A stretch of DNA of 64,000 nt from an uncultured bacterium (GTDB lineage Bacteria > Patescibacteriota > Minisyncoccia > UBA6257 > 2-01-FULL-56-20). Numbering within the stretch: position 1 is the stretch's first letter; each line of letters begins with the position of its first letter. Below the pieces are notes generated by a model, which saw nothing but the letters and a program-made list of their open reading frames with translations, ran no database searches and was not told the origin of the DNA. Where the stretch lies: assembly GCA_963768625.1 (NCBI GenBank), contig CAVYIK010000003.1:129274-193273 (forward strand), read 5' to 3'. Positions 42,181-44,835 of this stretch are shown here, piece by piece. The translations under genes and the position numbers were made by a program.

Positions 42181-43015
42181 GGAACAATAGTCAAAACGTT
42201 CCGAAGAACATGACCTTTGTCGTCCCGTGAACTTATAAAGAGCTTGCCCGCAGCCCCTTGATCGTTCCGAAGAACATGTCGATTGTCGCGGGCAAAATTT
42301 GACGGACAGTCTACGATACGTCCCGGAGGACAACAAGGCTGTCGTCCGTCAAACCAGAAGGTGCATCATCGTAATCGCTCCCGAAGGAACATCGGCTCAA
42401 TCGCACCTTCTTCAAAAACATCGCTGTCTCCAATGTCTTTAAAGAAGGGGCGAGGCGAACTTCGTCTCGCCCGGTTCCACGGGACAGCCAGACCATCGTC
42501 CGAAAAGACATTGGAATTTTCGTCCCGTGAACTTACAAAGGGCTTGCCCACAATCTTGGTTTCGTCCCGAAGGACATGACCATGTACGCAGGCAAAATTT
42601 GATGAACAGTGTGGAGTTCGTCCCGAAAGGACAGCTCTTGAGTCGTCCATCAAACCGGAAGGCACACTGACAAGATCGTCTCAAAGAGACATCAAGGTCT
42701 TCGTGCCTTCTTTAAAATTATCTCTGCGAAAATAACTTTGAAGAAGGGGCGAGACAGAACAATAAACGCCCCTTGAGAGCAATTTTGACATCGTCTCGCC
42801 CGGGATCAATGGACAAGCCCCACGTCGTCTGGAAAGACACTACATAGTTCGTCCACGAAATCCTAATCACCTTTTAGCACAAAAAGGATGGACCCGTCAA
42901 TAAAAAGAGCCCCGCCTCAATCGCTCGAAAGCGACGAGGCAGGGCCCAGGATTTGCGGGACACGCCTTTCAGCGTCCCATTAGGGACAGAACAATGTTCG
43001 TCCCGCAAAGTTTGA
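42181..43015 (-). repeat. tandem array (about 2.7 units) of a ~300-nt structured repeat built from UUCG-capped GUCC/GGAC-type mini-hairpins
   Basis: Units at about 42195..42480 and 42495..42790, plus a partial unit to 43015, are ~75% identical. Conserved order of sub-hairpins: CGTCCCGAAGGACAT, CGTCTCAAAGAGACAT, GGGCGAG...CTCGCCC, and a longer stem TTTGAyGGAC/GTCCrTCAAA with compensatory changes. Confidence 0.65.
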
Positions 43016-44314
43016 CTACGCTGCCTCGGCCCGGTTGGCCTTGAAGCGCAGTTCGGTTTCGATCCGCAGCCAGTCACGATAGAGCGACTCGACGAACTTG
43101 GTGAGCGTCCGCCAGATCGCCATCTTGTGGATGTGGCCGTTCGTGTAACGCTTCTTATCGTTCACGACCTCCACCTGGGGGTGGCGTTCGCGGAAGACGA
43201 CCTTATAGGCCAGGAATTTCTTTCCCCACAGAGAATCAGGACGGCGATTAAACTGGTCGGCCAGGAGATAAAGCGCCTGACGACCATCGGGATTCCAGTT
43301 CGCGATCTCATTGCGGCGTTTCCGGGGGAAACGGCCATCTTTGAGAACATGGACGCCGAGAAACGCTTTGAGCTTCGCGGCACCTTTTTGAATGGCCTTG
43401 TTCCGGCGGATGGCGATCTCTTCCGGCGTATGAGCGCCTCGGAGATCCGCCTTTACCTCGAAGTTGCGGATGTCCCCTACGGCGCTTATGATGCCGGCCG
43501 CGATGGTCTCTCCGCATCCTTCGATAGGTTCGAAGAGCGCTTCCCAGACGTCGAGCTGCCGAACCGCCCTCTTGAGCTCCTTGTTGCGGGCTTCTTCTTC
43601 CTTGACGAACGCCTGGAAGATCACATCCGTCGCCTTTACGGCATCGTATTGATCCTCAATGCGCCCTTCGGGATAGCGGCCCTCCTCGGAGAGGAATGTC
43701 CTTCCGATAATCCGCTGACGGAGACGGAGCCCACATCCCATCCTGGCTTTGATCGCGTCCTGACGGGCACGATAGGCCTCGCGCATCGCGATGAGTTCGC
43801 GGTCGCGGGGACCCGCCTGGTAGAAGAGCTCCGGGAATTGTTCGACAAGGGCGATGACGGTGATGTGGTCATTGTCCTTTGCCGTTTCGCCGCGGTGGAC
43901 CTTGAGCGCGAAGGGTGGAACGCGGAGCACGGCGGTGCCGTGGCCCAGTGTTTCTGCCTGGCGGGAAAGAGCGAAGGCAAGCCGGTCGCCCGATCCGCCA
44001 AGCGCCATTGCCACGGTGTCGCCGGGCTTCAGGCCTTCGTACGCTGAGGGTACCCTCTTCACGAGTTCGGTTTCGGAATCCCGTTTCTTCTGTTCCACCA
44101 CGTGATGCGGCAGATACGAAGCGATGTCCTCGCCTTCCTTCGCCTCATGCCACGTGGTCGGATAGCGGCCGAGCACGAAGTCGAGTTCGGCGGTTTCGTC
44201 CACGAGTTCAAGAGCGCGAATCTTATCGCCCTCCTTGATCGCGACGAGCGTCGGACGCTCCTCGTTGTCTGCCGTACGCTTCACACGATGGCTGATGCCA
44301 ATGATTCGTCCCAT
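43016..44314 (-). CDS. IS110-family (DEDD/RuvC-like + Transposase_20 domain) recombinase/transposase; first catalytic Asp replaced by Ser
   Basis: N-terminal domain MGRIIGISHRV...VAMALGGSG...AKDNDHITVIALVEQF resembles DEDD_Tnp_IS110, with GIS in place of GID. C-terminal IEGCGETIAAGIISAVGDIRNF...GRQALYLLADQF matches the IS110 Transposase_20 signature. Confidence 0.6.
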   Translation of the reverse strand: MGRIIGISHRVKRTADNEERPTLVAIKEGDKIRALELVDETAELDFVLGRYPTTWHEAKEGEDIASYLPHHVVEQKKRDSETELVKRVPSAYEGLKPGDTVAMALGGSGDRLAFALSRQAETLGHGTAVLRVPPFALKVHRGETAKDNDHITVIALVEQFPELFYQAGPRDRELIAMREAYRARQDAIKARMGCGLRLRQRIIGRTFLSEEGRYPEGRIEDQYDAVKATDVIFQAFVKEEEARNKELKRAVRQLDVWEALFEPIEGCGETIAAGIISAVGDIRNFEVKADLRGAHTPEEIAIRRNKAIQKGAAKLKAFLGVHVLKDGRFPRKRRNEIANWNPDGRQALYLLADQFNRRPDSLWGKKFLAYKVVFRERHPQVEVVNDKKRYTNGHIHKMAIWRTLTKFVESLYRDWLRIETELRFKANRAEAA

Positions 44315-44349
44315 AGGGACCTCCTTGTTTTCGTGACGTATTACGGATA

Positions 44350-44835
44350 TATCAATGGAAAAGAGCTACGGAAAGATTTGGTGAACATGGATTCAGTCGT
44401 CCCGAAGGACATTCACCCCATCGTCCATCAAATCAGAAGGCACAGAACAAGATACGTTTCCGAAGAAACACTTCTGTACTCGCGCCCTCTTCAAAGGCAT
44501 CGAGGCCGCTTGATGACTTTAAAGAAAGGGCGAGATGATACATGCTCGGTCGTATGTCTCGCCCAACTTCACAGAACAGTCGTATTATCGTCTCAAAGAG
44601 ACAAGAGTATGATCGTCCCGTGAACTCACAAAGAGCTTGCCCGCATCCTTCTCCTCGTCCCGAAGGACATGTGCAAATGCGCGGGCAAAGCTTGATGGAC
44701 ACTCACGTTTTCGTCCCGAAGGACATTTCCACAATCGTCCATCAAACTAGAAGGCACAACGGTTCTCTCGTCTCAGTAGAAACAACATTCGAATCGTGCC
44801 CTTTTCAACTGCTCGCGATTATAGCATTCGAAGCG
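44350..44835 (-). repeat. about 1.5 further units of the same ~300-nt structured repeat, upstream of the recombinase gene
   Basis: Same ordered sub-hairpins (CGTCCCGAAGGACAT x3, CGTCCATCAAAyyAGAAGGCACA x2, CGTCTCAAAGAGACA, GGGCGAG..CTCGCCC) as at 42181..43015. Confidence 0.65.

Follow-up and report, generated by a model that had tools for sequence, protein, structure and literature searches.

The closest described relatives of the locus considered here are the TIGR-Tas systems of the candidate phyla radiation (CPR). The study of Faure et al. (Science 2025; PMC12045711) describes a CPR clade of TasR with an inactive RuvC domain, large insertions and "stem arrays". A member of this kind, CsTasR of Candidatus Staskawiczbacteria, is the subject of a second report (Xu et al., bioRxiv 10.64898/2026.09.09.750476), which describes a 547-aa protein whose first two catalytic positions are R8 and V126 and in which a subdomain is inserted between β3 and β4. 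According to that report, the CsTasR guide RNAs (tigRNAs) lie upstream as well as downstream of the gene and contain a 5-bp stem between two spacers, each of which pairs with 9 nt; the protein does not cleave DNA in vitro, brings about RNA-guided transcriptional repression in vivo, and has been seen bound to double-stranded DNA in a cryo-electron microscopy (cryo-EM) structure. Systems of this kind were already published in 2025 (PMC12045711) and the clade was characterised in 2026 (bioRxiv 10.64898/2026.09.09.750476). Here we describe a locus in a 64-kb stretch of contig CAVYIK010000003.1, from an uncultured bacterium of the Patescibacteria (CPR); this whole stretch is referred to as the window, and all coordinates are window positions. 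The locus is, with high probability, a stem-loop-type TIGR-Tas system in which a nuclease-dead TasR is accompanied by an array of 17 dual-spacer tigRNA modules.

The 432-aa open reading frame (ORF) at 43016-44314 on the minus strand, here called tasR, had been taken in the initial annotation, made from the raw sequence, for an IS110-family recombinase gene. Curated models overturn this assignment. The protein scores 115.9 bits over residues 178-417 against NCBIfam NF052498 (TIGR_Tas_endo, the "TIGR-Tas system RNA-guided endonuclease" equivalog, cut-off 100), while its partial match to the NCBIfam IS110 model NF033542 reaches 31.6 bits against a cut-off of 140; in Pfam, PF01548 gave no match and PF02371 (Transposase_20) gave 15 bits, with a cut-off of 21.3. 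The single sequence match in the PDB is 9MTY, the TIGR-associated nuclease TasR, and a profile of the family retrieves 9MTY at an E-value of 4.5e-21 and IS621 at 0.002. The AlphaFold2 model of the protein (mean predicted local distance difference test score 91) has an N-terminal β-sheet/helix domain of the RuvC-like type, followed by a coiled coil and a Nop-like C-terminal domain. Foldseek places 9MTY best (E 1.5e-11), then IS621 and ISCro4 (1e-7 to 5e-6, IS621 at 1e-7), then TasH, with alignments to full-length TasR and IS621 that span 415-430 columns. The position of the IS621 nucleophile also speaks against a recombinase: in a hidden Markov model alignment Ser241 of IS621 (the "ESG" motif) falls on D326, a position that among 28 family members is Asp in 24, Gly in three and Gln in one, and never Ser.

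From its residues, the RuvC-like domain is predicted to be catalytically dead. A Ser in place of the first catalytic Asp (GIS) had been recognised from the translation and is indeed present at position 8, the first RuvC catalytic position; the suggestion drawn from it, that the protein may be domesticated, does not hold as a recent change, since the whole family lacks Asp at this position, with Arg in 20 of the 28 members and never D or E. The second catalytic position, 104, is Ala in the window protein and is never acidic in the family, being mostly V, I or A. Only D149, in the K-x-x-D motif, is invariant. The structure prediction that had been proposed as a check returned the RuvC-like domain; the sequence has the Ser substitution and lacks the DEDD tetrad (S8, A104).

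More than 678 homologues of the window protein were found, at ~40-60% identity, and those with a source name come from Patescibacteria. One of the related loci, L023, belongs to a Candidatus Staskawiczbacteria genome and encodes a protein that, counted from its second Met, is 547 aa long and has R8 and V126. The window protein is 44% identical to it over the full length, with S8 and A104 aligned with R8 and V126, and the region upstream of the L023 gene contains the same ACGA-N9-UGU module behind a consensus promoter. This comparison places the window locus, with its shorter protein, in the CsTasR family of stem-loop TIGR-Tas systems. None of the related-locus accessions or lineage names that we looked for was present in the supplement to PMC12045711.

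The gene is flanked by the array. Direct-repeat families with spacings of 300, 301 and 314 nt lie on both sides of it, in agreement with the same-strand repeats proposed at the outset, and the anchor GTGCCTTCYnGTTTGAYGGACGA is found four times on the minus strand, at 44758, 44444, 42666 and 42365. The copies are too diverged for Tandem Repeats Finder to report the array: overall they are less than 70% alike, with whole units at about 65-75%. The ~300-nt periodicity stands, but the unit is not one RNA: when it is read in the gene sense with a nested-stem scan, each unit resolves into five consecutive stem-loop modules of ~57 nt (56-58 nt), all with one geometry, outer stem-CGA-N9-UG[5-6 bp hairpin]CGA-N9-UG-outer stem. 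The outer stem usually has 9-12 bp and is shorter in a few modules, and the inner hairpin opens with UG and closes with CG; the second UG begins the 3' arm of the outer stem. There are 17 intact and two decayed modules, all on the minus strand. Alignment of the 17 leaves exactly eight invariant columns, C-G / U-G / C-G / U-G, which bracket both 9-nt windows with pseudo-two-fold symmetry. The multi-guide array that had been offered as one of several ideas is thus borne out, in the form of 17 tandem dual-spacer modules with tigRNA architecture.

Five types of outer stem can be told apart, and they follow one another in the order E A B C D' E A [tasR] B C D E A B C D' E A B C, an order that accounts for both the ~300-nt period and the apparent phase continuity across the gene. 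We considered that the gene might split a 300-nt unit and rejected this, as M7 and M8, the modules on either side of it, are both complete; the gene has an A-type module on one side and a B-type module on the other and keeps the array's phase. Units do occur on both sides, as had been stated, in corrected numbers: ~1.4 units (seven modules) upstream and ~2.4 units downstream (10 intact modules and one decayed). Hairpins of the GTCCTTCGGGACGA type (GUCC-UUCG-GGAC-GA), which had been described as confined to the gene sense, number six in the locus and all six are on the minus strand; elsewhere in the window there is one match with two mismatches, where shuffled sequences average 0.75 matches.

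Several lines of evidence indicate that the modules act as structured RNA and not as coding sequence. Across the 17 modules, the 16 pairs of the two helices are paired in 93.8% of cells, compared with 72% in column shuffles and 40-52% when the partners are slid, and 11 of the 16 pairs have changed on both sides, which upholds the compensatory stem changes first read from the letters. The outer helix is 90.9% paired, with 8 of its 11 pairs covarying, while for the inner helix the figure is 100%. When modules are folded singly they adopt the drawn structure, with z-scores from -3.2 to -6.3. Neither 314 nor 301 nt, the lengths of the units, is divisible by three, and units therefore share no reading frame; these lengths and the covariation together rule out the coding hypothesis and support the earlier proposal of a structured RNA transcribed in the gene's sense. 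The 17 window modules alone were used to build a covariance model (R1), which matched, in the 64-kb window, those 17 sites alone, all on the minus strand; within the window, at least, the repeats are thus not genome-wide elements of the REP kind. The comparison with Rfam that had been recommended, run in E-value mode over 38-49 kb, found no family for the units; the only matches were a tRNA-Glu and, on a long hairpin, spurious microRNA (miRNA) models.

The two 9-nt windows behave differently from the remainder of the module. Between modules of the same stem type, which are taken as paralogous, the scaffold is 77% identical and the spacers are 28% identical, compared with 26% for spacers of unrelated types; the 9-nt segments thus differ as much as random sequences do, as would be expected if they are spacers. 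M7 and M12 illustrate this, with 37 of 38 scaffold bases in common and 1 of 18 spacer bases. In alignments of whole units, identity is 84% for stems, 91% for inner hairpins, 70-82% for linkers and 30-33% for spacers; the more diverged unit beside the gene shows lower identity in every class, with linkers at 57-69%. The same holds beyond the window: over all loci, module pairs with 80-97% scaffold identity have spacers that are 28-36% identical. The locus itself holds 34 spacers in 17 pairs, and the only other contig that encodes the window protein is 100% identical.

The association of array and gene recurs in related genomes. The comparison set consisted of 80 homologous Patescibacteria loci from genomes of different species. 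Most of these have direct repeats on both sides of the gene, and in the set the hexamer GGACGA is strongly biased to the gene strand. R1 gave 495 matches at E <= 0.1, nearly all on the gene strand and adjoining or flanking the gene, and an independent motif-plus-stem scan found 335 sense and 7 antisense modules, with at least two modules in 47 of the 80 loci. In 150 foreign modules, 94.7% of cells are paired and there are 651 double-sided changes compared with 197 in shuffles, in an alignment that was fitted to the model and so favours structure. The ACGA and UGU boxes are 85-100% conserved in these modules and the core CG(A)/UG boxes 98-100%, and the 9-nt windows are near-random in composition.

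Some loci of the set depart from the common arrangement. In L065, alone among them, a run of antisense modules (3558-4080) lies downstream of the gene, in addition to a sense run at 1172-1900; it may be a second convergent array or a neighbouring system. In L010 (3113-3197), L018 (2391-2473) and L021 (1502-1588) the array is immediately preceded, on its own strand, by a tRNA-Leu(CAA) gene. Adjacency to a tRNA as a general trait was considered and rejected, as it is not general among 60 related loci.

The order of elements in the window locus is promoter, seven modules, tasR, M8, a terminator-like hairpin, ten more intact modules and a final terminator. It lies where it had been placed initially, but its true extent is slightly wider, with the promoter reaching to 44847 and the terminator to 42155. 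The sigma-70 promoter (44818-44847, minus strand) consists of TTGACA, an 18-nt spacer, TG and TATAAT, matching the consensus at 12 of 12 positions with an extended -10 TG, and M1 starts ~13 nt downstream of the -10 hexamer; judged by its sequence, this promoter probably drives the upstream array and tasR. The modules described below, all on the minus strand, were defined by the nested-stem read, the alignment of 17 modules and the covariance-model match. Ahead of the gene lie M1 (type E, 44748-44805; spacers UUCGAAUGU and GAGAACCGU; 41.6 bits with the covariance model), M2 (type A, 44691-44746; UUGUGGAAA and AAACGUGAG; 57.4 bits, fold z-score -4.75), M3 (type B, 44635-44690; AUUUGCACA and GGAGAAGGA) and M4 (type C, 44568-44624; UCAUACUCU and UAAUACGAC; also folded). 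They are followed by a decayed type-D module (44528-44564), which in comparison with M10 has kept the GGGCGAG/CUCGCCC stem and lost the spacers and the inner hairpin, then by M6 (type E, 44434-44491; GUACAGAAG and AUCUUGUUC) and M7 (type A, 44377-44432; UGGGGUGAA and CUGAAUCCA), the final module ahead of the gene.

Beyond the gene, M8 (type B, 42952-43009; ACAUUGUUC and UGAAAGGCG; fold z-score -6.3) begins 6 nt past the stop codon. Between M8 and M9 there is an intrinsic terminator-like hairpin of ~18 bp followed by UCUUUUUAUU (42899-42947, minus strand), with a fold energy of -34.5 kcal/mol and a z-score of -4.5; a simple terminator scan missed it because its long stem is interrupted. Straight after this hairpin, at 42869-42898, stand TTGACG, 18 nt and TAAAAG, which fall below the criteria of the promoter scan and may be a weak second promoter for M9-M19. 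The array then continues with M9 (type C, 42805-42860; ACUAUGUAG and CGUGGGGCU), M10 (type D, intact, 42746-42802; UGUCAAAAU and UUAUUGUUC), M11 (type E, 42656-42712; AGACCUUGA and UCUUGUCAG), M12 (type A, 42598-42654; CUCAAGAGC and ACUCCACAC), M13 (type B, 42542-42597; ACAUGGUCA and AACCAAGAU) and M14 (type C, 42476-42531; AAAUUCCAA and UGGUCUGGC). The second decayed type-D module (42447-42472; GGGCGAGACGAAGUUCGCCUCGCCCC) again retains the GGGCGAG/CUCGCCC stem without spacers or inner hairpin. It is followed by M16 (type E, 42355-42412; UUGAGCCGA and UUACGAUGA), M17 (type A, 42298-42353; CAGCCUUGU and AUCGUAGAC), M18 (type B, 42242-42297; CAAUCGACA and UCAAGGGGC) and the last module, M19 (type C, 42176-42231; CAAAGGUCA and UUUGACUAU; 44.8 bits), whose outer stem has only ~5-6 bp. 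An intrinsic terminator on the minus strand (42155-42176), with a 9-bp stem followed by TTTTTATTT, closes the locus. The two stem-only type-D copies are products of module decay within the array; the third type-D copy, M10, is intact. The motif CUU, reported as the processing site at the stem base, occurs within the 16 nt at the 5' base in 10 of the 17 modules; for the 3' base the count is 6 of 17. With a background of 24%, enrichment is seen on the 5' side only.

The surroundings of the locus contain further repeats. A 31-nt direct repeat, GAATCTCACTGCTCGGRCGGCYGTGGGCCGC on the minus strand, is present at 42107-42137 and 44856-44886 with two mismatches between the copies and brackets the cassette from promoter to terminator; each copy follows the T-tract of a terminator, and a GC-rich hairpin is present within the repeat. 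Adjoining the copy at 42107-42137 are 14 nt (42137-42150) that are identical to the 3' end of the neighbouring tRNA-Glu (GATTCTCCGTGGGG). The repeat and the tRNA fragment could be the trace of an insertion of the cassette or of a local duplication; on a weaker reading, the whole cassette would be a mobile unit, bracketed by the 31-nt repeat beside the 14-nt tRNA-Glu fragment. A search of Joint Genome Institute (JGI) metagenomes with the 31-nt repeat, for an empty site or relatives, returned 0 matches. The tRNA-Glu gene itself (41840-41912, plus strand) runs at its last bases into a near-perfect inverted repeat at 41911-41986, with 32-nt arms that are 97% complementary and a 12-nt loop, which may be a terminator or a processing structure. 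Another very long and nearly perfect hairpin is intergenic, at 38653-38724; its identification as an miRNA is spurious, since the models score on both strands and far below their gathering scores, although the hairpin itself is real. The neighbouring genes encode a response regulator, a ClpB-like AAA protein, a peptidoglycan-binding protein, DoxX, a glycosyltransferase and a pilin-like protein, and none of the accessory genes sought (fibrillarin, L7Ae, integrase, Cas1-like) lies within about 4-5 kb on either side. Within the gene for the peptidoglycan-binding-domain protein there is a 148-nt direct repeat (46732-46879 and 47056-47203, 324 nt apart, with 80% identity), as would fit duplication of a PG_binding_1 domain.

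Homology with CsTasR, TaTasR and PateTasR suggests that the array transcript would be cut in the linkers by a host RNase to give single tigRNAs. A TasR dimer would then, again by homology, use its Nop-like domains to bind one tigRNA at both box pairs. In a contiguous 18-bp DNA target, spacer A would pair with one of the strands and spacer B with the opposite one. The complex would be expected to bind DNA and block transcription, leaving the DNA uncut because the RuvC-like domain is without its first two acidic residues (S8, A104).

A number of points weigh against the assignment to TIGR-Tas or soften it. Expression, processing and binding of tigRNAs at the window locus are proposed by analogy with the characterised systems. 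The protein of L023 is probably the published CsTasR, an identification that rests on the name of the organism, the length and two residue numbers. Residue 8 is Ser here and Arg in most relatives. The terminator-like hairpin after M8 stands between the upstream promoter and M9-M19 and may bear on how these are transcribed. Finally, matches to the 18-bp targets of the 17 spacer pairs within the 64-kb window are at chance level: with both half-site orders (B+rcA and rcA+B, rc denoting the reverse complement) and up to four mismatches, the search gave two matches with three or fewer mismatches compared with 0.7 in controls, and one of the two was the array itself. For M2, the 18-bp site formed by spacer B and the reverse complement of spacer A is AAACGTGAGTTTCCACAA; in viral collections, by a rough estimate, about one chance 18-mer match would be expected per pattern.

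Three other explanations have to be set against these data. An IS110/IS1111-type mobile element, the leading idea at the outset, is very improbable; here a recombinase would bring about its own insertion with the help of one or several of the structured RNAs beside it, serving as bridge or seek RNAs. A distant kinship with such elements is evident from the Foldseek match to IS621 (E 1e-7), the weak Transposase_20 score and the partial NCBIfam IS110 match of 31.6 bits, and the 31-nt direct repeat brackets the whole cassette. With 31.6 bits, however, the protein stays below the curated IS110 cut-off of 140, and it clears that for TIGR-Tas; the first two RuvC positions are non-acidic across the family, and at the position of Ser241 the 28 proteins have Asp or Gly, apart from one with Gln, and never Ser. 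In addition, the RNAs on either side of the gene form 17 tandem dual-spacer modules instead of one two-loop bridge RNA, the element is single-copy in the window, and the homologue CsTasR does not cleave DNA in vitro. The RNAs have the dual-spacer stem-loop architecture of tigRNAs; the other roles that had been suggested for the repeats, namely a bridge RNA, a decoy or a target array, are not supported.

Least probable of all is that the repeats are genome-wide repetitive extragenic palindromic (REP)-like elements or an array of insertion targets unrelated to the gene, or, in a variant, that small repetitive proteins are their products. Repeated sequences are a frequent location of IS110-type elements, and short ORFs do overlap the units. 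The repeats, however, have no copy outside the locus in 64 kb, and their linkage to the gene holds in 80 genomes, with a strand bias of 335:7; neither finding is compatible with ordinary genome-wide repeats; spacings of 314 and 301 nt keep no reading frame, and compensatory variation in the stems with random 9-nt windows is the pattern of an RNA and not of coding sequence. An RNP like the box C/D small nucleolar RNP (snoRNP), acting in RNA modification or binding with each 9-nt spacer pairing to cellular RNA and not to DNA, is improbable, if a little less so than the other two. A Nop-like domain joined to a dead RuvC, as in Nop5, together with dual-spacer guides would suit such a particle, as would the lack of a DNA target in the 64-kb window, and Faure et al. 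(PMC12045711) raise the CPR clade of TasR as a possible intermediate towards snoRNPs. Against it stand CsTasR, 44% identical, which binds double-stranded DNA (cryo-EM) and represses transcription in vivo; the lack of fibrillarin, L7Ae or another modifying enzyme within about 4-5 kb on either side; and boxes that read CGA/UG and not the RUGAUGA/CUGA of kink-turns (K-turns). A nuclease-dead TIGR-Tas system remains the preferred reading.

The history of the array within this TIGR-Tas locus is a separate matter. It may have grown by tandem duplication of five-module (~300-nt) blocks, after which only the 9-nt spacer windows were rewritten, but we regard this sequence of events as doubtful: conserved scaffolds and linkers with saturated spacers do not distinguish active replacement from old duplications under selection on the scaffold. 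Other arrays also show higher-order periodicity, in multi-module blocks with spacings of ~200 to 600 nt, as in L017 (2394-3927), L028 (2433-3928 and 5415-6620), L014 (495-2500), L055 (5409-6633) and L068 (5063-6278), and block duplication seems to be a general mode of array growth in the clade. Both publications (PMC12045711; bioRxiv 10.64898/2026.09.09.750476) state that how TIGR arrays expand and acquire spacers is unresolved, and in the parts consulted they do not mention the five-module higher-order repeat. This repeat, with its saturated spacer divergence, provides a useful natural example for array expansion and spacer turnover; if active spacer replacement is true, it bears on how TIGR arrays acquire spacers. 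Otherwise the locus adds little to the published work on TIGR-Tas, being one more chromosomal dead-TasR system in a CPR bacterium. It does show that a reading of raw sequence without tools picked out a genuine RNA-guided system, one that can be assigned by curated models and a characterised relative.

The locus can be compared with four known systems. With the box C/D snoRNP (Nop5-fibrillarin-L7Ae) it shares a Nop domain with an inactive RuvC-like N-terminal domain and two antisense elements bracketed by boxes; unlike it, the window boxes are CGA/UG and not the K-turn RUGAUGA/CUGA, and the characterised relative targets DNA. With the IS110 bridge recombinases (IS621, ISCro4) it has in common a RuvC-like domain, a coiled coil, a helix-hairpin-helix/Nop-like RNA-binding domain and a guide RNA beside the gene. 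In contrast to them, the window protein lacks the DEDD tetrad and the Ser nucleophile and fails the curated IS110 model, many tandem guides take the place of one two-loop RNA, and there is no sign of mobility. TaTasR (PMC12045711; PDB 9MTY) is the best structural and sequence match in the PDB for the window protein and resembles this system in its dual 9-nt spacers, in a repeat element that begins with UG and pairs back to the end of the repeat, and in tandem guides beside a single effector gene. It differs in having an active RuvC that cuts DNA, where that of the window protein appears dead, and in fixed 36-nt guides with two short alternating repeats that end in CCA and have no variable stems, whereas the window boxes end in CGA and the window modules are ~57 nt long with outer stems of 9-12 bp. 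CsTasR is closest. Unlike it, the window protein has 432 and not 547 aa, is without ~22 aa of the RuvC insertion and most of a ~55-70-aa insertion after the helix-hairpin-helix, and has Ser and not Arg at position 8; the window array is a five-module higher-order repeat, and the window locus is known here from its sequence alone. The two proteins nevertheless belong to the same family and share the RuvC β3-β4 insertion (residues ~40-95 of the model, a short helix and a β-sheet), and their RNAs share a hairpin of ~5 bp between two 9-10-nt spacers, with the ACGA-N9-UGU boxes also present in the L023 array.

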